Below are positions 1,089-12,191 of a DNA stretch of 13,574 nucleotides, piece by piece. The notes beneath the pieces were generated by a model. That model saw only the letters and a list, made by a program, of their open reading frames with translations, was not told the origin of the DNA and searched no databases. Numbering within the stretch: the first letter of the stretch is position 1; each line of letters opens with the position of its first letter. The stretch comes from a virus (taxonomy: Duplodnaviria > Heunggongvirae > Uroviricota > Caudoviricetes). The stretch lies in the IMG/VR virus record IMGVR_UViG_2684622582_000008, positions 1 to 13,574 of that record, one strand, 5' to 3'. The position numbers and the translations under genes are program-made.

Positions 1089-1111
1089 TTTGGCGGAAGA
1101 TCACAGGAGTC
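1089..1111. repeat. attR: displaced copy of the selC 3' end (direct repeat of 11803-11825)
   Basis: tggcggaagatcacaggagtc at 1091-1111 is identical to 11805-11825; the match extends 2 nt upstream (tt). Imperfect similarity continues into the element (caaaattgcc vs cgaacctgcc). Confidence 0.85.
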
Positions 1112-1233
1112 AAAATTGCCATATAACCACTTGATTCAAATCGTTTATATTTTTCTATTCTAATTCATTTATACACATCCTTATACATATAATATCTATC
1201 GATTAATTGTTACACGTATCTTCACGCACGTTA

Positions 1234-1540
1234 ACTCAGGAAAAAAATTTTTTTTCGGAAGAACTGTTCACACTGTTCACCTTTCTGTTTTCTCCTTTTA
1301 TTTCAGTTTGATAGGTGGTGAATAATGGGTGAAGGGTGAACATTCGATTCTTCACCTCCGGCATTCTGCCGGTGTGACTCATACCGGTGATTAATCCTCC
1401 GCACTGAAATCACTCAGGAAGAAAAAAGTTTTTTTGATTTGATTGTTCACACTGTTCACCTTTCGTTTTTCTCTTTTAATTTCAGTGTGATAACGGGTGA
1501 ATATACGGTGAAGGGTGAACAGTGGATTGTTCACCTTCGG
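1234..1540. repeat. crr-like cis replication region: two ~128-bp direct repeats (1234-1361 and 1412-1540), each with several TGTTCACC/GGTGAACA type-I-like iterons
   Basis: The two segments align almost base for base (actcaggaa...ttcacactgttcacctttc...ggtgaagggtgaaca...ttcacc). Octamers such as tgttcaca (1265-1272), tgttcacc (1274-1281) and ggtgaaca (1335-1342) are present. Position directly downstream of alpha matches P4 crr. Confidence 0.75.
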
Positions 1541-1554
1541 GGGATTCAGGGATG

Positions 1555-1578
1555 AAAAAAGACCGGCAGATGCCGGTC
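1555..1578 (-). terminator. Rho-independent terminator downstream of alpha
   Basis: Stem gaccggc/gccggtc (1561-1567 and 1572-1578) with a 4-nt loop. On the minus strand it is followed by a run of six T (complement of aaaaaa at 1555-1560), 17 nt past the alpha stop. Confidence 0.55.
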
Positions 1579-1594
1579 AGATGAGTCATGAGGG

Positions 1595-3928
1595 TCAGGT
1601 TGTTGCAGGGTCGTCACATTTTGGCAGCCAGTCGCCGTAGCTTTCCTCTTTCAGCGTCAGGTTGGTCTGTATCCCCTGTTTGGTATGGCGCTTCTCGTAA
1701 TTCAGCCCGTATTCCTTCAGCATCACCGGCAGCCCCAGCCCGAACATTTTCAGACTGAGTACATTCCGGTAGCCGTTTGCCTCCATGTAGGCCAGATAGG
1801 CGTGATAGAGGTATTTACGGTAATTACGCGGGATGATACTGGCGTTCCCCATATACATGCCGCTGGTCTGCGGCAGGGTTTCCAGATAGCCGATAAAATC
1901 AAACGTCGGGTCGGCATCCCGTTTGATGTTCAGTGCCTCGTCTGAGTTCTGCTGGGACTGAAGCAGTGACCGGGCGAGCATCGGGTCGCTGAATTTCTGC
2001 ATCAGGTGACGCACGATGACCGCCAGCTCGCGGGTGATTTTGTCCTTAAGCTGCGGGTCGCGCTCCTGCGGGGCTATCTGTTCCGGGAAGTGAATAATCA
2101 CCCGCCGGCGTGACACGCCGCCGCTGCGGTCGGTGAAGCGCATCGGGTTATTGTTCACGGCCAGAATCACCGCCGGGATATGCGTGGAGTACGCATCCCG
2201 GTATTTCGGGTCCACGGACACCGCATCGCCGCCGGTGATGGCCTTGAGTCCGGCACCGTCGCCGCTCCATTTTTCCTGGTCCGGCAGGCGTATCAGTGAG
2301 AAGCCAGTTAACGCGGCACGTTCACGCGGGGATTCCAGCGTCTCAATGGTGGCCGATGTGGCGTTATCCTCCCCGGCCAGCAGGGTGGCGATTTCGGCCA
2401 TGATACTTTTGCCGCTGCCGCCGGGACCGGTCACCTCCAGAAAGAGCTGCCAGTCGTAGCGGTTTGCCAGCACCATAAACAGTGCGGCCAGAATCACGTC
2501 GCGTTTTTCCGCACGGCCACCGGCGGCACGGTCAAGCCAGCGCCAGAACGCGGGGGCGTGGTTTTCCAGCGTTTCCCCTTCCACCGGCGGGGTGAAATCC
2601 ACATCGCACAGGGTGCGCATCCAGTGTGACGGACTGTGCAGGTGGAACGTGCCGTTCTGCGTGTCGAGCACGCCGTTACGAAAGCCAATCAGGCGGCGGG
2701 AGGGGGCTTCCTGCTGCGGAATAATCAGCTTCAGGGTGTCCACCACGGAGGCCACCTTCCCGGAGGAGAACGGCGCGCGCAGACGCTGAAACAGCCCGGC
2801 CACATCCCGGGCAAAGTCCTGTGGCGGCAGCATCTTCCAGACACCATTTTCATAGCGGGACAGAAGCTGGCCGTTGGCATCGACCGCGAGCGCCTCGCCG
2901 TAATGCTCATAGATACGCATGGCCTTTTCGCTGGTACTCATGGCGGAAAACTCCGCTTCGCTCATGGTGTCGAACGGGCTTTCAGCCGGTGGCCGGATGG
3001 CATCGTAAATGGCCTTACGGGTGGCCTCCCCGCCGTACTGCGTGAAGGCATCATTCCAGTCACCGAAGACCGGCGGCAGGGCAACAACGCCCTCACACGC
3101 ATCTGCGGCTGCGGCGGCTTTTTTCTGGCCGTCACCGCTGAGGTCACGGTCAGCAGCAAGGACAATCTGACAGGCCGGATGCTTCTGCCGGGCAAGGCTG
3201 GCCAGAGAAAGGAGGTTCACGGAAGAAAGCGCCACCATCACCGTTTCACCGGTCAGGTGATGTACGGTAAGTGCGGTCGCGTATCCCTCCGCTATCCACA
3301 GACGTTTTCCGGCCTGATTCTGTCCTTCAAGGATGTGACAGGTGCCCCTGACCTGTCCGCCTTTCAGGGTGCGCTTACGGCCGTCAGCACTGATTAACTG
3401 AAGGTTAACCAGTTCGCCGCTGTCGTCATACAGTGGCACCACAAGGTCACCGGCACGCCAGCTCACGCCACCGGCTCTGTGTGTGCCGGTCAGCATCCGG
3501 CATTCCCGGCCGGGAAAGCCCTTGCGGGTCAGGTAGGCGTTACCGGTTCCGGGACGGGTTTTCGCCATCAGGGTTTGTGCCAGTGCGGCGGCGTTCTTCC
3601 GGGCAGCGTCTGTTTCAGCAACGGCGGCGGCCGTCACTGCCGGGTCAGCCGGGGGCAGGCTGCCGGTCACGGCAGCCACCTTTGTGGCCGCGTCGGACGG
3701 GGAGACACCAAACACCTTTTCAACCAGTTTCAGGCCGTCACCGGCACCACACTGATTGCAGTACCAGGTGCCGCGCCCCTCCCTGTCATCAAAACGGAAG
3801 CGGTCACTCCCGCCACAGACCGGACAGGGCTGATGACGGTTTTTCAGCACCTGAATCCCCAGCGCCGGGAGGATACGCGGCCAGTGGCCGAGCGCATGGC
3901 TGACGGTGGCGGTTACGTTCATTTTCAT
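1595..3928 (-). CDS. alpha: P4 alpha-type primase-helicase (zinc-binding primase N-terminus, central/C-terminal P-loop helicase), 777 aa
   Basis: ATG at 3928 with GGAG upstream. N-terminal CPVCGG...WYCNQCG zinc-binding motif; Walker A GPGGSGKS; length equals P4 alpha (777 aa); flanked by crr iterons. Confidence 0.85.
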   Translation of the reverse strand: MKMNVTATVSHALGHWPRILPALGIQVLKNRHQPCPVCGGSDRFRFDDREGRGTWYCNQCGAGDGLKLVEKVFGVSPSDAATKVAAVTGSLPPADPAVTAAAVAETDAARKNAAALAQTLMAKTRPGTGNAYLTRKGFPGRECRMLTGTHRAGGVSWRAGDLVVPLYDDSGELVNLQLISADGRKRTLKGGQVRGTCHILEGQNQAGKRLWIAEGYATALTVHHLTGETVMVALSSVNLLSLASLARQKHPACQIVLAADRDLSGDGQKKAAAAADACEGVVALPPVFGDWNDAFTQYGGEATRKAIYDAIRPPAESPFDTMSEAEFSAMSTSEKAMRIYEHYGEALAVDANGQLLSRYENGVWKMLPPQDFARDVAGLFQRLRAPFSSGKVASVVDTLKLIIPQQEAPSRRLIGFRNGVLDTQNGTFHLHSPSHWMRTLCDVDFTPPVEGETLENHAPAFWRWLDRAAGGRAEKRDVILAALFMVLANRYDWQLFLEVTGPGGSGKSIMAEIATLLAGEDNATSATIETLESPRERAALTGFSLIRLPDQEKWSGDGAGLKAITGGDAVSVDPKYRDAYSTHIPAVILAVNNNPMRFTDRSGGVSRRRVIIHFPEQIAPQERDPQLKDKITRELAVIVRHLMQKFSDPMLARSLLQSQQNSDEALNIKRDADPTFDFIGYLETLPQTSGMYMGNASIIPRNYRKYLYHAYLAYMEANGYRNVLSLKMFGLGLPVMLKEYGLNYEKRHTKQGIQTNLTLKEESYGDWLPKCDDPATT

Positions 3929-3942
3929 GGTGTTGTTCTCCT

Positions 3943-4263
3943 TCAGTGCAGTACCGGCGCTTTTATGTGACGGGCACAGAGTTCATCCATCACAACCAGC
4001 CCGAGAAAGGACAGCGACGGCGCGGCCTTCAGGGGGCCGGATTCCATTAAATCTTCCAGCAGGGCACAGGCTATCTGACGCCCTTTTTCCTCACCGTGCT
4101 GGCGCAGATAAAAGCCTTCCAGCTCAGCGGCGATGGCCGCCTCCAGTGATTCAAGGGTGAGATGCGGGTAGCGGTGCTGACGTTCGCACACGGTCAGCCA
4201 GGCACAGGCGACAGCGCGACGGTAAAGGGCTGCGCGTAAGACGGGCGGTAAGGGGGTTTTCAT
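3943..4263 (-). CDS. cnr: P4 orf106-like small protein (possibly Cnr copy-number regulator), 106 aa
   Basis: ATG at 4263 preceded by GGGAGG. Ends 14 nt upstream of the alpha start, so it is in the operon. Size and position match P4 orf106; the cnr name is from memory and tentative. Confidence 0.5.
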
Positions 4264-4398
4264 TTGTTTTCCTCCCTGTGACAGATGACTGCATTCCGTG
4301 CCGGTTGCATTAACTGATAAGGCATATCTGCGTCTCCTGAAGACGTGCGTATCCCTGCGCGAATACGCACATTTAATTTTTCGGGTGTCGTTTTTTAA

Positions 4399-4854
4399 TT
4401 ACAGATAATTGCGGTAACTGTTATCCGGGGTGATTTCCGGGTCAGGCTCCGTGCGGGAAATTTCCCGCCATTCCCGCGCCACCGGTGCCGCCCGGCTGGC
4501 CGGAACAGTGTCCTGCGGGTAAATATCCAGATATTTCTCCCGCCATTTCTGTAATTCCGGGTCTCCGGCCATTTCTTTCAGTACCGCATGCCGGTTTACG
4601 GGGCTGCGTTTGAACAGGTCAGGACGGTCACAGGTAAATTCCCGCAGAAAACGCCCCAGCGGGATGTCTGTGGTGCGCCCGTCAGTGAGGATACGCACAA
4701 GGATACTGAATTTTCGGCGGTACGGGTTCCAGACAATTTCCGGACAGCGGTACGGCATTTCCCACGGAATACCGTCTTCCAGAATGCCGACCACGGCCAC
4801 ATCGGGAAAACCGGCAGAACGGTAAATCTCACCGGGCTGGGGAAAATCAAACAT
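4399..4854 (-). CDS. P4 orf151-like hypothetical protein, 151 aa
   Basis: ATG at 4854; start overlaps the stop of the upstream epsilon-like ORF by 8 nt (coupling). Size and position match P4 orf151. Confidence 0.6.
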   Translation of the reverse strand: MFDFPQPGEIYRSAGFPDVAVVGILEDGIPWEMPYRCPEIVWNPYRRKFSILVRILTDGRTTDIPLGRFLREFTCDRPDLFKRSPVNRHAVLKEMAGDPELQKWREKYLDIYPQDTVPASRAAPVAREWREISRTEPDPEITPDNSYRNYL

Positions 4855-5134
4855 GTGTCCTGTCTCCCCGGTCTTTCTGCTGGGCGAGAAAATCGCGGCA
4901 CAGGCCTTTGGCTTTCAGCTCATTCAGCACAAAATCAATATCTTCATTCAGGTAGCTGAAAATATGCGGAATGTAGAGCTGATGCAGGCCGGAGAGTTCA
5001 CGGTGAATCAAATCACCCCCAACAAACCGGGATACTGCGCTGGCGCGGTTGAGCTTATGGTAAGCCTCAATGCTGAGGTGTTCACGGGCGTCATGACGCG
5101 CTGAGACGGTCTGAGGGGCTTTTTTATTACGCAC
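4847..5134 (-). CDS. epsilon: Epsilon-like protein (P2-type helper derepressor), 95 aa if GTG start at 5134
   Basis: In-frame GTG at 5134 preceded by GGAGG (revcomp of cctcc at 5141-5145). Overlaps the stop of the upstream 65-aa ORF (GTGCGTAA). Alternative in-frame ATG starts at 5179 or 5215 cannot be excluded. Function inferred from position and size only. Confidence 0.5.
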
Positions 5135-5324
5135 GGGACACCTCCACCACCGGCAGACGGGCAGCAAGGGAGAGCACATAGTCACGGACAAGGGAACGGC
5201 GGGCGCTGCGTTCATCACCGGCGACGGTGCGAAGCATGCAGATACGGGGATGACGGTCTGCGCGACGGACAGCCGCAAACACAAAGACAAATTCAGGGTG
5301 TGAAGGGGTAAGGGTTGTAGCCAT
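5127..5324 (-). CDS. Small hypothetical protein (65 aa), first well-supported ORF after the leader
   Basis: ATG at 5324 with AAGGAGA 7 nt upstream; TAA stop at 5127. It is the C-terminal part of a longer open frame (5127-5762) that I do not accept as one gene. Confidence 0.45.
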
Positions 5325-5355
5325 AAGGCAGTCTCCTTCGAGTAGCAAATAACTG

Positions 5356-5619
5356 CTATCGCCGGAGTTCCTACGCTCGATGGCGATAGCCCAGACGGGG
5401 GTAGGAATACCGGCCTCGAAGAATACCGGCCAGCCCGGAGGCTGCCCCGCCTGAGCTACCATTGACTCAGTGGCATAACATGCGATTGCGAACAGGATCA
5501 TACCTGCACGGCAAACCACACGCCACACCATAATCTGGCGCTCTGTGGCGTTGATTGCGACACAAAAAAAGACGCATGGCGCGTCATATGTCGCCTTCGA
5601 GTTACACGGGTTCCTACGC
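5356..5619 (-). ncRNA. Candidate P4-type immunity leader (cI-like RNA with seqA/seqB/seqC-like elements)
   Basis: No RBS-supported ORF between the vis stop and 5324. gttcctacgc occurs twice (5367-5376 and 5610-5619); ggggtaggaat at 5397-5407 is near-complementary (8/10) to it. Hairpin ctatcgcc/ggcgatag (5356-5363 and 5382-5389). Order on the leftward transcript (copy, complement, copy) matches the P4 seqA-cI(seqB)-seqC layout. Confidence 0.35.
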
Positions 5620-5648
5620 CCGGCTGCCGATTTTGCGGCAGCGGAAAA

Positions 5649-5678
5649 ACTATATCCGCAAATGCCGGAAAAAGGCAA
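5649..5678 (-). promoter_or_regulatory. Candidate constitutive leftward promoter (PLE-like)
   Basis: On the minus strand: TTGCCT (-35; plus 5673-5678) and TATAGT (-10; plus 5649-5654) with 18-bp spacing, just downstream of vis. Confidence 0.3.
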
Positions 5679-5713
5679 GCCAGAAAAAGGGAGTTTTTGC
5701 AGAGCGGGCATCA

Positions 5714-5980
5714 TCATGCGTCGTACCCCCGTTTGCGTCCGGCAATGCGCCCGGCCATCCATGCGGTGATTTCAGAGTGCAGCCAGGCCACATTTTTACC
5801 GCCAAGACTCACCTGCGGCGGAAATTCCCCCTTACGGATGAGTTCGTAGATGGTCGAGCGTGACAGGCCGCACAGGTGCATCACTTCCGGCAGACGTAAA
5901 AAACGCTCCTGCGTGATGTCCGGCAGCGGCATCAGTGGCGTCACAGGGGCGGGAGACGGGGAAGAAAAAACAGCTTGCAT
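5714..5980 (-). CDS. vis: AlpA/Vis-family helix-turn-helix regulator/excisionase (P4 orf88 vis-like), 88 aa
   Basis: ATG at 5980 with GAGGT upstream. Segment [29 protein letters not shown]...[10 protein letters not shown] is typical of AlpA-family proteins. Length equals P4 orf88 (vis). Confidence 0.75.
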
Positions 5981-6081
5981 CGGGCTACCTCGTTAATGTC
6001 CATACAGCACCGGATAAGTCCGTCCGGCTTCGGGTAGCGCTTTATTTTGTGAATATTTTCAGCAGACGCAACAGGGGGATT

Positions 6082-6099
6082 TGTTCAGGCTGCCTTACA
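6082..6099 (-). promoter_or_regulatory. Delta/Ogr-type activator site (TGT-N12-ACA) of a leftward late promoter (PLL-like) upstream of vis
   Basis: tgt tcaggctgcctt aca at 6082-6099, centred about 110 bp upstream of the vis start. Confidence 0.5.
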
Positions 6100-6257
6100 A
6101 TGACTGTGTGTTTTTTATCCATCTGGACTGGAAGGGTCTCAAAGGGTTCTGAAGGACCTGGAATTTTTTATAGTGAAATACAAATTGTTTTTTCTTATTT
6201 ATTTCAGTGAATTAATAAAAATAAACAGTAGTAAACAGCACAAAAAGTCCATGAGCG

Positions 6258-6361
6258 GGTGAACAGTGGTGAACAGACGGTGAACAGTCATTACTGCGAT
6301 TGTTCACCCTTTAACTTACTGTATTACTTATCTTTTTTATTAAGGTGAACAGAGGTGAACA
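6258..6361. repeat. ori-like cluster of six type-I-like iterons (GGTGAACA/TGTTCACC)
   Basis: ggtgaaca at 6258-6265, 6268-6275, 6279-6286, 6344-6351 and 6354-6361; inverted tgttcacc at 6301-6308. Same octamer as in the crr-like repeats about 4.8 kb away. Confidence 0.7.
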
Positions 6362-6440
6362 GTAAAATATAAAAAAACAAACAGTAAGCCGGTTTTTCCT
6401 GCGACCTTTTCCTGGCTTGCCGGTGTGAGGATGAGTCTCC

Positions 6441-6458
6441 TGTGTCAGGGCTGGCACA
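6441..6458 (+). promoter_or_regulatory. Delta/Ogr-type activator site (TGT-N12-ACA) of Psid late promoter
   Basis: tgt gtcagggctggc aca at 6441-6458, centred about 80 bp upstream of the sid ATG (6531). Confidence 0.55.
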
Positions 6459-6530
6459 TCTGCAATGCGTCGTGTTGTTGTCCGGTGTACGTCACAATTT
6501 TCTTAACCTGAAGTGACGAGGAGCCGGAAA

Positions 6531-7265
6531 ATGTCTGACAACACCATCCCTGAATATCTGCAACCCGCGCTGGCACAACTGGAAAAGGCCAGAGCCGCCC
6601 ATCTTGAGAACGCCCGCCTGATGGATGAGACCGTCACGGCCATTGAACGGGCAGAGCAGGAAAAAAATGCGCTGGCGCAGGCCGACGGAAACGACGCTGA
6701 CGACTGGCGCACGGCCTTTCGTGCAGCCGGTGGTGTCCTGAGCGACGAGCTGAAACAGCGCCACATTGAGCGCGTGGCACGCCGGGAGCTGGTACAGGAA
6801 TATGACAATCTGGCCGTGGTGCTGAATTTCGAACGTGAACGCCTGAAAGGGGGGTGTGACAGCACGGCCACCGCCTACCGGAAGGCACATCATCACCTTC
6901 TGAGTCTGTATGCAGAGCATGAGCTGGAACACGCCCTGAATGAAACCTGTGAGGCGCTTGTCCGGGCAATGCATCTGAGCATTCTGGTACAGGAAAATCC
7001 GCTCGCCAACACCACCGGCCATCAGGGCTACGTCGCACCGGAAAAGGCTGTCATGCAGCAGGTGAAATCATCGCTGGAACAGAAAATTAAACAGATGCAA
7101 ATCAGCCTCACCGGCGAGCCGGTTCTCCGGCTGACCGGACTGTCAGCGGCAACACTCCCGCACATGGATTATGAGGTGGCAGGCACACCGGCACAGCGCA
7201 AGGTGTGGCAGGACAAAATAGACCAGCAGGGAGCAGAGCTTAAGGCCAGAGGACTGCTGTCATGA
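6531..7265 (+). CDS. sid: Sid-like capsid size-determination (external scaffold) protein, 244 aa
   Basis: ATG at 6531 with GAGGAG 8 nt upstream (the ORF-track GTG at 6513 has no RBS). Length equals P4 Sid; first gene of the sid-delta-psu operon. Confidence 0.8.
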   Translation: MSDNTIPEYLQPALAQLEKARAAHLENARLMDETVTAIERAEQEKNALAQADGNDADDWRTAFRAAGGVLSDELKQRHIERVARRELVQEYDNLAVVLNFERERLKGGCDSTATAYRKAHHHLLSLYAEHELEHALNETCEALVRAMHLSILVQENPLANTTGHQGYVAPEKAVMQQVKSSLEQKIKQMQISLTGEPVLRLTGLSAATLPHMDYEVAGTPAQRKVWQDKIDQQGAELKARGLLS

Positions 7266-7762
7266 TTTACTGCCCGTCGTGTGGACATGTTGCTCACACC
7301 CGTCGCGCACATTTCATGGACGATGGCACCAAGATAATGATTGCACAGTGCCGGAATATTTATTGCTCTGCGACATTTGAAGCGAGTGAAAGCTTTTTCT
7401 CTGACAGTAAAGATTCAGGAATGGAATACATTTCAGGCAAACAGAGATACCGCGATTCACTGACGTCAGCCTCCGGCAGTATGAAACGCCCGAAAAGAAT
7501 GCTTGTTACCGGATATTGTTGTCGGAGATGTAAAGGCCTTGCACTGTCAAGAACATCGCGGCGTCTGTCTCAGGAAGTCACCGAGCGTTTTTATGTGTGC
7601 ACGGATCCGGGCTGTGGTCTGGTGTTTAAAACGCTTCAGACCATCAACCGTTTCATTGTCCGCCCGGTCACGCCGGACGAACTGGCAGAAAGCCTGCATG
7701 AAAAACAGGAACTGCCGCCAGTACGCTTAAAAACACAATCATATTCGCTGCGTCTGGAATGA
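7262..7762 (+). CDS. delta: Delta-like late transcriptional activator (tandem Ogr-type zinc-finger domains), 166 aa
   Basis: ATG overlaps the sid stop (ATGA). CPSCGH...C..C and a second C..CC..C...C..C cysteine cluster are consistent with duplicated Ogr-like zinc fingers. Length equals P4 Delta. Confidence 0.8.
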   Translation: MIYCPSCGHVAHTRRAHFMDDGTKIMIAQCRNIYCSATFEASESFFSDSKDSGMEYISGKQRYRDSLTSASGSMKRPKRMLVTGYCCRRCKGLALSRTSRRLSQEVTERFYVCTDPGCGLVFKTLQTINRFIVRPVTPDELAESLHEKQELPPVRLKTQSYSLRLE

Positions 7763-7835
7763 GGGCTGCCGGTTAACACCGGCCGTCGCCGCACACCGTA
7801 TTTTTATTCTTCAGCATGATGAGAAAGAGATAACG

Positions 7836-8408
7836 ATGGAAAGCACAGCCTTACAGCAGGCCTTTGACACCTGTCAGAATAACAAAGCAGCATGGCTGCA
7901 ACGCAAAAATGAGCTGGCAGCGGCCGAACAGGAATATCTGCGGCTTCTGTCAGGAGAAGGCAGAAACGTCAGTCGCCTGGACGAATTACGCAATATTATC
8001 GAAGTCAGAAAATGGCAGGTGAATCAGGCCGCTGGTCGTTATATTCGTTCGCATGAAGCCGTTCAGCACATCAGCATCCGCGACCGGCTGAATGATTTTA
8101 TGCAGCAGCACGGCACAGCACTGGCGGCGGCACTGGCACCGGAGCTGATGGGCTACAGTGAGCTGACGGCCATTGCCCGAAACTGTGCCATACAGCGTGC
8201 CACAGATGCCCTGCGTGAAGCCCTCCTGTCCTGGCTTGCGAAGGGGGAAAAAATTAATTATTCCGCACAGGATAGCGACATTTTAACGACCATCGGATTC
8301 AGGCCTGACGCGGCTTCGGTGGATGACAGCCGTGAAAAATTCACCCCTGCGCAGAACATGATTTTTTCGCGTAAAAGTGCGCAACTGGCATCACGTCAGT
8401 CTGTGTAA
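7836..8408 (+). CDS. psu: Psu-like polarity suppression protein (Rho antagonist / capsid decoration), 190 aa
   Basis: Third gene of the late operon; length equals P4 Psu; N-terminus MESTALQQAFDTCQNN matches my recollection of P4 Psu. Confidence 0.8.
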   Translation: MESTALQQAFDTCQNNKAAWLQRKNELAAAEQEYLRLLSGEGRNVSRLDELRNIIEVRKWQVNQAAGRYIRSHEAVQHISIRDRLNDFMQQHGTALAAALAPELMGYSELTAIARNCAIQRATDALREALLSWLAKGEKINYSAQDSDILTTIGFRPDAASVDDSREKFTPAQNMIFSRKSAQLASRQSV

Positions 8409-8444
8409 AATTCCCCGAAAATCCGCCTGTTTTTACTGAAAAAA

Positions 8445-8483
8445 GCCATGCATCGATAAGGTGCATGGCTTTGCATGCGTTTT
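8445..8483 (+). terminator. Candidate terminator after psu
   Basis: Stem gccatgca/tgcatggc (8445-8452 and 8462-8469) followed by a T-rich tract tttgcatgcgtttt. Confidence 0.4.
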
Positions 8484-8572
8484 CCTGCCTCATTTTCTGC
8501 AGACCGCGCCATTCCCGGCGCGGCCTGAGCGTGTCAGTGAAACTGCATTAAAACCGCCCCGCAAAGCGGGCG

Positions 8573-8591
8573 GGCGAGGCGGGGAAAGCAC
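8573..8591. other. cos-like cohesive-end site (P2/P4-type 19-mer)
   Basis: ggcgaggcggggaaagcac matches the P2/P4 cohesive-end sequence as I recall it; it lies between psu and the cargo gene, as in P4. Confidence 0.65.
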
Positions 8592-8620
8592 TGCGCGCAT
8601 GTATGCAGGAAATAACCTGA

Positions 8621-8666
8621 CTCTCCAGCCAGAGAAAGAAACTGAACTGGAGAGTTTTTTGTTTTT
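8621..8666. terminator. Stem-loop with flanking T/A tracts between cos and the cargo gene
   Basis: ctctccag (8621-8628) pairs with ctggagag (8647-8654), followed by ttttttgttttt (8655-8666). It sits about 25 nt past the stop of the minus-strand cargo gene. Confidence 0.35.
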
Positions 8667-8678
8667 ACATGGATGTGT

Positions 8679-10439
8679 TCAGTTTTTATTTATGAATGAA
8701 ATACTGTTCTCTAGTGACTCCTTTACTTTTTTCACGGTGTTTTTTAACTCAATAATGGCTCCGCGACGAAAAGAAATTGAAAGTTCATTCAGGTAAGAAT
8801 TTAAGAACTCATCTAGTTTTTTTAGATGAGGTAGCTCGTTAGATAGATAATCGCGAAGGTTAGAAAAGTTGTATACAGATAATAGATGGTCTGAAAACAT
8901 TTGAATATCGTAAATGGACCAATTATGTTGTATGGCACTTATGATTAAATTTACATCTAAAGTTTCCAGTGCTTTAAACTTGAAATCTGAATGATATATA
9001 TCCATATCGATAGTGGTCCAACCATCGTTAACCATCTTGTTTTTTAATTCTTCTATTCTTTCTCTTTTTGTTATGTTAATATATTTGTCAACAAAAAAGT
9101 TATATAAATTATCTCCATCATGTTTTAGCATATTTAGTGGGATGTCATTGATGTTTGGCACGGTTTTATGAAAATATGATTTTATTTCATCGTCACTGAA
9201 GCTAAGTTTGCTTTGATTAATGGTGTCTTCATCTAGGGTGTTTATATGAGGTATATATTCATATTTTGAGAGTCTAATATAGTTATTCGTGGCAATTAAC
9301 CATGTAGATAGATCTGGAGAATTTGATTTTAAAATTGTTTTTATTATTTCTTCCTGATAGTCATGTTCAGATATGTTATATAACTCAGGTCTTAATAATC
9401 CAGCATAATCATTTCTCTTGGGAGGGGTATTGTCAGTAAAAACATATGGAAGAATGTCTTTATGCGAAATTGCATTAAAACAATATGGAGCCATTTTATT
9501 ATTATAGTTTTTGTATGCACTAATACTTAATAAATTGTTTTCTTCTTCACTTATTTCATTGTGTTCGTTTTCTGGTGTGGTTGAAATTGTTTTGAGTGAT
9601 GATGAAACAAAATTTTCACGAAACTCATTTTCCTTATAGTTGAATTTTTCCTTAAGTATTATATGTGCACACAATGAGCTTACTAAATTTTTAATATCTA
9701 TATCAGAGATATCTCTGTCTTGCGTTGTTTGTTCAAACAACGGTAGGAGTTTTACAATGACTCTATTAATGATTCGGATATTTGTTTCTTCGAAATCTAT
9801 AATTACTTGCTTAATGATGTCTCTATAATTTTCTTGTATTTTCTCAAGCTTTTTATCTAAAATGTCAGAAAGATTGTTTATAGAAAAGTATACCTCGTCG
9901 CTAATAACTTTTTCTTTATGATTCAATACCTCATTGCTTTGTTTTGAAAAATTACCAACTAAAATATAGTCTAACATCTTGTTATTTTGATAATTTTGTA
10001 AGCAAAAGGTTGCTATTTCATCTCGCAAATTTTGAGGTATACGTTCTAGATCATCAATAATAAAAACTCCTGAAAGATCTTTTAATACATAATGTTGCAT
10101 TGCCCCTGCAAATGTTGATATTATTTTTCCAGTAAACTTCCCAGTGCTTTCTTCTTTAGTAATAGCTGTGGTTACATTTGATGCTAACTCTGTAATTATT
10201 TCTATATCGGGTGGATTCTCTAAATAAGTTACACTCAACACCTTGTCTTTAAAATCTTGCAAACTATTTAATCCAAGCACAGATATATAAAATTGAGTTT
10301 TGTTGGAATAATATTGCTTAAATTCATTTTGAAGGAAGAATGTTTTACCAACCCCCCACTCACCGTTTAACAAAATTAGACCTTCACGTTTTTCATTTAG
10401 TAATCTAATTAAAACAGATATTATTGTGTTTTTATCCAT
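8679..10439 (-). CDS. KAP-family-like P-loop NTPase with large uncharacterised C-terminal region, 586 aa; candidate anti-phage defence cargo in the P4 hotspot
   Basis: ATG at 10439 with AAGGAG upstream. Walker A GEWGVGKT (GxWGxGKT type) and Walker B VFIIDDLER (hhhhDDL[DE]R type) in the first ~135 aa. Very AT-rich compared with the P4 backbone. Occupies the gop/beta/cII position between cos and int. Confidence 0.7.
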   Translation of the reverse strand: MDKNTIISVLIRLLNEKREGLILLNGEWGVGKTFFLQNEFKQYYSNKTQFYISVLGLNSLQDFKDKVLSVTYLENPPDIEIITELASNVTTAITKEESTGKFTGKIISTFAGAMQHYVLKDLSGVFIIDDLERIPQNLRDEIATFCLQNYQNNKMLDYILVGNFSKQSNEVLNHKEKVISDEVYFSINNLSDILDKKLEKIQENYRDIIKQVIIDFEETNIRIINRVIVKLLPLFEQTTQDRDISDIDIKNLVSSLCAHIILKEKFNYKENEFRENFVSSSLKTISTTPENEHNEISEEENNLLSISAYKNYNNKMAPYCFNAISHKDILPYVFTDNTPPKRNDYAGLLRPELYNISEHDYQEEIIKTILKSNSPDLSTWLIATNNYIRLSKYEYIPHINTLDEDTINQSKLSFSDDEIKSYFHKTVPNINDIPLNMLKHDGDNLYNFFVDKYINITKRERIEELKNKMVNDGWTTIDMDIYHSDFKFKALETLDVNLIISAIQHNWSIYDIQMFSDHLLSVYNFSNLRDYLSNELPHLKKLDEFLNSYLNELSISFRRGAIIELKNTVKKVKESLENSISFINKN

Positions 10440-10469: not shown

Positions 10470-11642
10470 TCAATCTGCTGGATAAATAAAGTCACTATAC
10501 CATTGTAACATCTTTAATCTTTTCTCTAAATATTGAGCATGATTATATGTTCCCCTAATGCTATTTTTATCAACATGAGCTAGTTGCATTTCAATCCATG
10601 CACTATCAAAACCTTGTTCATGTAGTATTGTCGACATTGTATGTCTAAACCCGTGGCCTGTTGCACGTCCCTTATAACCAAGTAATTCGATCACTTGTGA
10701 TATACTTTCTTTAGAAATTGGTTTAGTACGATTATTACGTCCAATAAATATATAAGGATAATGGCTAGAGATGGGTTTTAATTGATTAAATAGGGTAATC
10801 ACTTGAGATGATAAAGGTACAAGGTGAGGCCGACGCATTTTCATGCGTTCTGCTGGTATTTCCCATATTCCTTTTTCTAAATTGACTTCTTCCCATGTGG
10901 CAAAACGCAGCTCTTGTGTTCTTACTCCGGTAAGCATCACAATCTTGGTTGCATTTTTAGTGATTATGCTGCCAGTGTAAGCCTCCAGATCTTTGACAAA
11001 ATAAGGGAGTTCTTCTGCTGATAGAAAAGGATGATGTTTTTGCTTCGGTACAGCTAATGCGATAGCTAAATCAGGTGCTGGATTGTATTCAGCACGGCCA
11101 GTGATGATCGCGTAGCGAAACACCTCTCCGCATCGTTGACGTACTTTTCTGGTTTTCTCCAACGCTCCACGTTTTTCTATGCGTTTAAGTACTTCAAGCA
11201 GTTCTAGGGGTTTAATTTCAGCTATTGGCCGTTTACCAATGAAAGGAAAAACATCCTGTTCAAATGTTTTAATAATTTCTTCGCGATAAGCTAGAGTCCA
11301 ACGATCTGCTTTTGCTGCGTGCCATTCTCTGCTAACTGCCTCAAAAGAGGTTTCAATTGATAATTTCTGAGCAATTTTCTGAGCCTTACGTTCTTCTACT
11401 GGATCAATGCCGTTTGCAACCTGTTTACGTGCCGTATCGCGTTTCTCACGTGCTTCTGCGAGGCTTACTAAATCATAGCTGCCAAATGACATTAACCGCG
11501 CTTTCCCAGCAAATCTGAAACGGAAACGCCAGCCTTTCGAGCCATCTGGATTGATAAGCAACGACAGACCTTGTCCATCGTTCAATGTGTATGGCTTGTC
11601 TTGTGGTTTTGCACGTTTGATCTGTATATCGGTTAGAGCCAT
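10470..11642 (-). CDS. int: Tyrosine site-specific integrase (P4/CP4-57-like family), 390 aa
   Basis: N-terminus MALTDIQIKRAKPQDKPYTL...WRFRFRF is typical of P4-family integrases. C-terminal catalytic region GHGFRHT...LAHVDKNSIRGTYNH. Lies adjacent to tRNA-Sec. AT-rich. Weak RBS. Confidence 0.85.
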   Translation of the reverse strand: MALTDIQIKRAKPQDKPYTLNDGQGLSLLINPDGSKGWRFRFRFAGKARLMSFGSYDLVSLAEAREKRDTARKQVANGIDPVEERKAQKIAQKLSIETSFEAVSREWHAAKADRWTLAYREEIIKTFEQDVFPFIGKRPIAEIKPLELLEVLKRIEKRGALEKTRKVRQRCGEVFRYAIITGRAEYNPAPDLAIALAVPKQKHHPFLSAEELPYFVKDLEAYTGSIITKNATKIVMLTGVRTQELRFATWEEVNLEKGIWEIPAERMKMRRPHLVPLSSQVITLFNQLKPISSHYPYIFIGRNNRTKPISKESISQVIELLGYKGRATGHGFRHTMSTILHEQGFDSAWIEMQLAHVDKNSIRGTYNHAQYLEKRLKMLQWYSDFIYPAD

Positions 11643-11804
11643 GTGTATAACTGAAAACTACGTATAAAAAATCTATACACATTACTATACATATTTTTCG
11701 CGGATTCAGGGAGATGAACTCGGACTATTACGGATAAGATGATTATTCATCGTATTGAATACAAAGGGTTTTATGGAGCGTCTCGGAACTGGCTGGATGA
11801 AGTT

Positions 11805-11899
11805 TGGCGGAAGATCACAGGAGTCGAACCTGCCCGGGACCGCTGGCGGCCCCAACTGGATTTGAAGTCCAGCCGCCTCACCGGAGACGACGATCTTCC
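11805..11899 (-). tRNA. selC: tRNA-Sec (selenocysteine tRNA), intact; its 3' end forms attL
   Basis: The reverse complement of 11805-11899 reads GGAAGATCGTCGTCTCCGGTGAGGCGGCTGGACTTCAAATCCAGTTGGGGCCGCCAGCGGTCCCGGGCAGGTTCGACTCCTGTGATCTTCCGCCA, matching E. coli selC as recalled, including the long variable arm and CCA end. Confidence 0.9.
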
Positions 11900-12191
11900 G
11901 CGCCTCGATTGCTACATGGAGGCGGGGCGCATTATAGCTACTTCCTTGAGTTTCTACATCCCCCAGATCAGTTTTTTCCGCCTAATACACGCAGCGTATT
12001 ATCACGAAAGCATTATAGTTCATATAAAAATCATATTTTACAATGATATATGAGCGAAATTAACGCTACCACGATCACATAAAACAAGAATCATAAATTA
12101 ATAACCAGATATCGGAATATTCGCTCTCGCAGGGATGGTTTACAAAATGCGTTATCGGTCTCAGCACCCCTATAGCATCAAGGAAAAGCAG

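Follow-up and report, generated by a model that had tools for sequence, protein, structure and literature searches.

The nonamer TATACAYAT, repeated on both attachment arms of a P4-like satellite at selC, very probably marks the accessory, arm-type sites bound by the element's own heterobivalent tyrosine integrase. Judged by position and repeat sequence, these sites are positionally homologous to a feature known in P4 since 1987 and constitute a new specificity variant of it. An earlier sequence-only reading of this DNA had proposed integrase arm sites here, and that interpretation is supported in silico by the arm-binding domain of the integrase, by a layout like that of P4, and by conservation of the motif and of its distance from the core amid scrambled flanks.

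The window (the whole stretch of DNA analysed, 13,574 nt) consists of E. coli DNA surrounding selC, with the P4-like satellite inserted at that gene. The inserted element is 10.7 kb long and is delimited by a 23-bp exact direct repeat, TTTGGCGGAAGATCACAGGAGTC. It also encodes Delta and Psu, in addition to the genes listed in Table 1. By blastn, positions 1242-8599 of the window are 97.4% identical to P4 4291-11624 plus 1-27. The alpha protein is 98.6% identical to that of P4, and Vis is 98% identical (86 of 88 residues). Since the identity is 97.4% outside, and the cargo, int and both arms differ, the element is P4 in which a single block has been replaced. On circularization this block forms one stretch that runs from the cargo (8600-10439) through int, the int-proximal arm and the core to position 1241 of the distal arm. 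The TATACAYAT clusters of both arms fall within it, and homology to P4 starts exactly at 1242, on the crr side, past the distal motif pair.

The interval between psu and int is a documented anti-phage defence hotspot of P4-like satellites (PMC9122126). In the window it holds a 586-aa ORF (8679-10439, minus strand) for a P-loop NTPase of the AAA_22/KAP type, whose sole PADLOC match is the candidate system PDC-S49 (E=2e-12). The cargo at this spot varies in the relatives, where a kinase, a DEAD-box helicase, a HAD hydrolase or an AAA-like protein is found. One relative, L084 (E. coli O157:H7 Z1830), has an ISEc8/IS66 insertion (555-2867) in place of the distal att core, and the satellite is therefore probably locked in place.

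Table 1. Features of the window and, for comparison, the annotated att region of P4 (NC_001609 coordinates)
Feature	Positions	Strand	Remarks
Distal att core copy	1089-1111	.	Last 21 nt of tRNA-Sec plus 2 nt, duplicated; exact repeat of 11803-11825
IHF-consensus site TAACCACTTGATT (YAANNNNTTGATW)	1124-1136	-	Between core and distal arm sites
Distal-arm arm-type site 1 (predicted), TATACACAT	1170-1178	+	Exact match
Distal-arm arm-type site 2 (predicted), TATACATAT	1182-1190	+	12-bp period with site 1
crr-like repeats	1243-1361 and 1422-1540		Two ~120-bp copies, spaced 179 bp, 80% mutual identity; counterpart of P4 crr
alpha, P4-type primase-helicase	1595-3928		
Vis, AlpA family (predicted RDF)	5714-5980		
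int, P4-family tyrosine integrase, 390 aa	10470-11642	-	Pfam; 38% identical to P4 Int
Inverted arm-type site (predicted), TATACACAT	11641-11649	-	Overlaps int ATG (11642-11640); candidate autoregulatory operator
Degenerate inverted arm-type site (predicted), TATACGTAG	11658-11666	-	2 mismatches
Int-proximal arm-type site (predicted), TATACACAT	11674-11682	+	Tandem member; exact match
Int-proximal arm-type site (predicted), TATACATAT	11686-11694	+	Tandem member; 12-bp period
Int-proximal att core	11803-11825	.	Within tRNA-Sec 3' end; exact repeat of 1089-1111
tRNA-Sec (selC)	11805-11899	-	Flanked by RhuM family gene and start of yicJ
P4 arm repeat inside int (sixth annotated)	3621-3632		
P4 arm repeat at int start	3915-3926		Abuts Met (3914-3912) aligning with window Int Met1
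P4 tandem pair, int side	3942-3953 and 3954-3965		
P4 att core	4078-4097		
P4 second tandem pair	4151-4162 and 4163-4174		Followed by crr

The two 21-mers named in the sequence-only reading are present as claimed, tatacacatccttatacatat at 1170-1190 and tatacacattactatacatat at 11674-11694, both on the plus strand. Its figure of 60-130 bp for their distance from the att cores is right, since 58 nt separate the distal pair from its core and 108 nt the int-proximal pair from its own. The inverted copy that it reported also exists, but its description as a partial 8-mer at 11643-11650 was wrong: a full 9-mer lies at 11641-11649 on the minus strand, ending on the first two bases (A and T) of the int start codon. 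The 9-mer TATACAYAT has five exact matches in 13.6 kb against 0.15 expected, a number reached by no shuffle, and the 21-nt pattern TATACACAT-N3-TATACATAT has two against 0.01 expected (200 shuffles). All five TATACAYAT copies lie within ~160 bp of the two att cores. The motif is present on both attP arms, with two distal copies and three to four proximal ones, and is unrelated to the core sequence. The site equivalent to the degenerate inverted copy is a perfect TATACACAT in four relatives (L002, L003, L004 and L033).

Two motif-like copies are also found inside int on the minus strand: TATACAGAT at 11620-11628, which spans codons 5-8, and CATACACAT at 11585-11593, which spans Pro-Tyr-Thr-Leu codons. 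Ile6 is encoded by the rare codon ATA in 27 of the 32 non-redundant relatives that have Ile at this position. This bias hints at a constraint at the nucleotide level, with shared ancestry another possible cause.

The integrase has an N-terminal arm-DNA-binding domain (Arm-DNA-bind_3, PF13356) at residues 3-88 (E=1.3e-27), a central domain at 100-193 and a catalytic domain at 206-371 (Pfam). The closest solved N-terminal domains to Int residues 1-89 are PDB 3JU0 (E=5e-23) and 3JTZ (E=4e-17). In the IntSXT/P4 subgroup, arm binding is assigned to this domain, DUF4102 (PMC8138268). Int is the only protein of the element that changes with the motif, because Vis and alpha are unchanged relative to P4 and the cargo differs among motif carriers.

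When attP was reconstructed in silico the two arms came to be juxtaposed, as the sequence-only reading had predicted, and the order and spacing of the sites match those of the arm repeats annotated in P4. Counted from the int ATG through the distal pair, the reconstructed attP is ~264 bp long, and its P4 equivalent ~260 bp. Six "attP arm sequence repeats" are listed for P4 in NC_001609, following Pierson & Kahn 1987 (J Mol Biol 196:487), and five of the six flank the core in the geometry of the window, with crr next. Both begin with an inverted copy at the start of int and continue with a tandem pair of 12-bp period, ~110 bp and a core in a tRNA 3' end; beyond the core come ~55-58 bp, a second tandem pair and crr. 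With this direct precedent in P4, the arrangement is not new in kind. The repeat itself differs, being (A/G)TGCCCCCA in P4 and TATACAYAT in the window; the two have a TGnGnnTA skeleton in common at best, and therefore belong to different specificity classes. The elements also differ in their target, which is leuX for P4 and selC for the element in the window, and the sixth P4 repeat, inside int, lacks a clear counterpart in the window. The annotated start of P4 int (3926) lies four codons upstream of the Met that aligns with Met1 of the window Int.

Within the int-proximal arm, CGGA (TCCG on the int-sense strand) occurs at 11701, 11721, 11731 and 11784 (11701-11787). These repeats are common to the P4 P arm, and GTCTA repeats are found instead in three relatives (L251, L278 and L286).

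Conservation was assessed in loci picked solely for the similarity of their integrase, from two integrase-based scans, which gave 98 loci (1.35 Mb) of the clade with the Int start M[APL]L[TSN][DE][IML]Q. The tandem motif, with up to 2 mismatches, has 86 matches in these loci, 85 of them at the two arm positions and one elsewhere. TATACAYAT is nearly its own reverse, which made the reversed motif unsuitable as a control (55 matches); permuted motifs were used, and 30 of them gave a mean of 1.1 matches and a maximum of 9. Of the 86 matches, 56 lie at -54 to -50 from the int ATG, in 56 loci out of the 63 whose upstream sequence is available (pair at -52/-40), and 29 lie at distal arms, 7-11 kb downstream and in unchanged orientation. 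A motif copy directly before the int ATG is present in 62 of the same 63 relatives. The tandem pair has more than 2 mismatches in 7/63 relatives, so the consensus is looser than TATACAYAT.

The distance from the core is conserved as well. In a core-anchored test the tandem pair was found at 59-61 nt, upstream of the distal core, in 28 of 30 relatives. The 18 specified columns of the motif reach 1.82 of 2 bits over 21 non-redundant distal arms, against 0.48-0.62 in the flanks, and the proximal arms have the same conservation pattern. In L002, whose int is 80% identical at the nucleotide level, the distal arm is unalignable save for TATACACAT-CTC-TATACACAT, and the distance to the core is kept. 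The distal-arm statistics come mainly from viral-contig loci, because genome contigs of other genera mostly have no distal end within the 10-kb flank. Loci from an exact-pattern scan of viral contigs, of which 8 of the 80 checked have a related integrase, were left out of the conservation statistics because they had been selected by the motif itself. The distal arm was found in 484 of 5,426 complete E. coli genomes.

The sequence-only reading had proposed looking for conservation in other selC-targeting elements with related integrases. Motif and spacing are indeed kept in relatives, but the conservation is not specific to selC and follows the Int clade. TATACAYAT with its spacing is kept at three tRNA cores, namely selC, a tRNA ending in ...GGCACCA and a tRNA ending in ...CGCTCCA. 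Conversely, selC integrases that are 70-72% identical to the window Int carry G-rich arm repeats (L013-L017, L067, O157 Sakai and E. coli 536 IntI), which are clearest as a tandem in 536, L015 and L017. The N-domain of these G-rich-class selC integrases has 52-61% identity to the window Int, versus 69-80% for the remainder of the protein. By these comparisons the motif tracks the clade of the N-terminal arm-binding domain of Int, and not the tRNA target, Vis or alpha. E. coli 536 IntI and O157 Sakai IntL were considered as members of the TATACAYAT class and rejected, their arms carrying G-rich repeats.

Many relatives selected by Int, down to 45% identity, have a 12-bp tandem pair near -50 and an inverted copy at the ATG, each in sequences of their own. 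Examples of the repeat and its ATG copy are TGGGGGTAT/TACCCCCA, TGGGGGCAT/ATGCCCCCA and TGTTGGTAT/TACCAACA, the last with TGTTGGTAT twice and TACCAACA at the ATG; another is TGGGGGCAA, present twice, with TGCCCCCAA at the ATG. Two positions of the N-domain split 46 proteins of the TATACA class from 28 of a C-rich class without overlap. Residue 27 is Ser in the TATACA class and Tyr, Phe or Gln in the C-rich class, and residue 48 is Ala or Pro in the former and Glu or Arg in the latter. The co-variation of these residues with motif class is suggestive and is confounded by phylogeny.

Among integrases with the selC core at least three classes of arm repeat occur, TATACAYAT, a GGGGGTA type and GGGGGCAT (L290:9840-10220, which is 536; L288:2560-2910, which is Sakai; and L015/L017/L067). 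With several arm classes at selC, elements that compete for this one site may thus each be shielded from the integrases of the others.

For the function of the sites, physical binding, arm-core bridging, a role for IHF and autorepression are what we infer, following the paradigms of lambda, P4 and KplE1. The excised circle would carry a single attP with, in order, the int ATG and its inverted site, the degenerate inverted site, the tandem pair, ~108 bp with the CGGA repeats, the 23-bp core, the IHF site and the second tandem pair. The N-domain of Int (residues 1 to ~90) would dock on the arm sites, leaving the core to the central and catalytic domains, and a bend induced by IHF would let one Int protomer bridge arm site and core. 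The intasome assembled in this way would integrate the element into selC and, together with Vis, excise it. The putative IHF site in the distal arm, a match to the consensus alone, has just one equally perfect counterpart elsewhere in the window. An IHF-like site (WATCAANNNNTTR, at most 1 mismatch) is present at an unchanged offset in 9 of the 21 non-redundant distal arms, and a consensus scan of the int-proximal arm found no IHF site.

Autoregulation is suggested as a second role by the inverted copy that overlaps the int start codon. Int bound to the proximal sites would repress int, and this negative autoregulation is expected because the proximal sites cover the start codon and probably the promoter too, with its -10 region. 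A scan of 11500-11900 for sigma-70 promoters and terminators found none, and the promoter overlap therefore rests on analogy with P4, where by our own reading a putative promoter, TTGAAA-18-CATAAT, lies across the tandem pair. According to the authors of PMC2951348, P4 Int binds DNA directly near the point where int transcription starts and thereby represses its own expression. In KplE1 the arm-type P' sites of IntS overlap PintS and IntS represses intS, and selC-intL is likewise autorepressed (PMC2951348). IntI of PAI I536, which is 72% identical to the window Int, strongly represses its own promoter, where IHF also binds (PMC7286903). These repression experiments were done with homologues, none of them an integrase of the TATACAYAT class. 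A search of the accessible literature found no binding, footprint or mutational data for the TATACAYAT class, matches to the motif string being Tn5 mosaic ends only, and a paper on regulation of ICEKp1 int has nothing on arm sites. There is no Shine-Dalgarno sequence before the int ATG (11643-11660), and many of the Int-selected relatives have a copy of the arm-type repeat there instead.

Other proteins or signals might account for the motif. Binding sites for a recombination directionality factor (RDF) are typically direct repeats about one helical turn apart and are normally on one arm. The tandem direct-repeat form of TATACAYAT fits such sites, and P4 Vis acts at attP and on int expression, so the copies might be sites of Vis and not of Int. 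However, the motif is on both arms, and no copy lies near the early and late promoters of P4 type, at which Vis acts too. Moreover, a Vis that is 98% identical to that of P4 would have to recognize TATACAYAT here, yet P4 has (A/G)TGCCCCCA at the equivalent positions. The CGGA repeats, common to the P4 P arm, fit Vis better and are the better candidates for its sites, and it is most unlikely that TATACAYAT serves Vis. Promoter or translation-initiation elements of int without a role in recombination are a very unlikely explanation, even if the motif contains TATA(C/G) hexamers resembling a -10 box, the proximal copies lie at most 55 nt from the int ATG, and this Int family does without a Shine-Dalgarno sequence. 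The distal pair has no gene start next to it, and in 28 of 30 relatives its distance from the distal core stays at 58-61 nt amid otherwise unconserved DNA. The equivalent repeats of other clades are G/C-rich (TGGGGGTAT) and cannot be -10 boxes, and the promoter scan was empty.

The distal pair is also ~50 nt from the crr-like repeats at 1243-1540, which would suit replication iterons of crr/ori bound by alpha. Alpha, however, is 98.6% identical to that of P4, and homology to P4 crr begins only at 1242, past the motif; the type-1 iterons of P4 have a different sequence (TGTTCACC type), and the other motif cluster lies beside int, a long way from crr. A single host factor cannot account for arm-motif classes that, in one and the same host species, shift with the Int clade, and both proposals, iterons and host-factor sites, appear extremely unlikely. 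As to chance, the att arms are AT-rich, and most of what the exact-pattern scan picked up in viral contigs was low-complexity TATACATATA repeats of AT-rich giant-virus contigs. Against these stand the shuffle expectations of 0.15 and 0.01, the 1.1 matches of permuted motifs versus 86, and a position that is kept across diverged arms, which leave chance similarity with a practically negligible probability. Arm-type sites of Int thus remain the preferred reading.

It is possible, if somewhat doubtful, that the layout follows a rule across the whole P4/DUF4102 family, from Enterobacteria to distant Proteobacteria (integrase identity down to 45%), in which a fixed arrangement is kept while the repeat co-evolves with a few residues of the N-domain. 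The arrangement may comprise a tandem pair of 12-bp period ~50 nt upstream of int, an inverted copy at the start codon that replaces the Shine-Dalgarno sequence, and a second pair ~58 nt beyond the core, and the recognition residues may include Ser27 versus Tyr/Phe27 and Ala/Pro48 versus Glu48. If the rule is true, arm-site specificity, and hence attP, would be predictable from the protein, and the start-codon copy would be a universal autorepression operator, possibly extended by the copies at 11620-11628 and 11585-11593.

The arm sites would define the minimal functional attP (~265 bp) of widespread P4-like satellites and selC islands. They may be of use in delimiting elements, in building selC integration vectors and in predicting which integrases cross-mobilise which elements. 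The comparison clearly shows the int-attP module, arms included, to be swapped as one block between otherwise identical satellites, and arm specificity evolves independently of core specificity. Elements with a common core and different arm motifs should be recombinationally insulated from each other. The classical selC retronphage phiR73 was not found in the phage collection searched.

Among known systems other than P4, the order of sites in the P' arm of lambda attP is C'-H'-P'1-P'2-P'3. The distal arm of the window resembles it in having a core, an IHF-consensus match placed like H', and tandem predicted arm-type sites. It differs in having two arm sites with a 12-bp period where lambda has three, in the family of the arm-binding domain (DUF4102/Arm-DNA-bind_3 in the window, lambda type in lambda) and in an unrelated Xis family. 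The heterobivalent logic of Int is common to both (PMC8138268). For the integrases of HPI and HAI7, whose arm-binding domains have been solved (3JTZ and 3JU0; Szwagierczak et al. 2009, cited in PMC8138268), the likeness is at the level of the protein domain alone.

KplE1 and HK620 encode IntS-type integrases that are ~46% identical to the window Int (Panis et al. 2010, PMC2951348). There too int lies beside a tRNA gene and arm sites are found in the int-proximal att region, with negative autoregulation predicted for the two systems alike. The IntS sites contain a TAAA motif and were mapped experimentally, whereas those of the window were mapped computationally, and the RDF is TorI in place of Vis/AlpA. 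IntI of PAI I536 and IntL of O157 (PMC7286903; PMC2951348) are closer, with a common selC core and 71-72% identity to the window Int, and their autorepression has been demonstrated experimentally. Their arms, in contrast, carry the G-rich repeats TGGGGGTA / CACCCCCA, and their N-domain is more diverged from that of the window Int than is the remainder of the protein.
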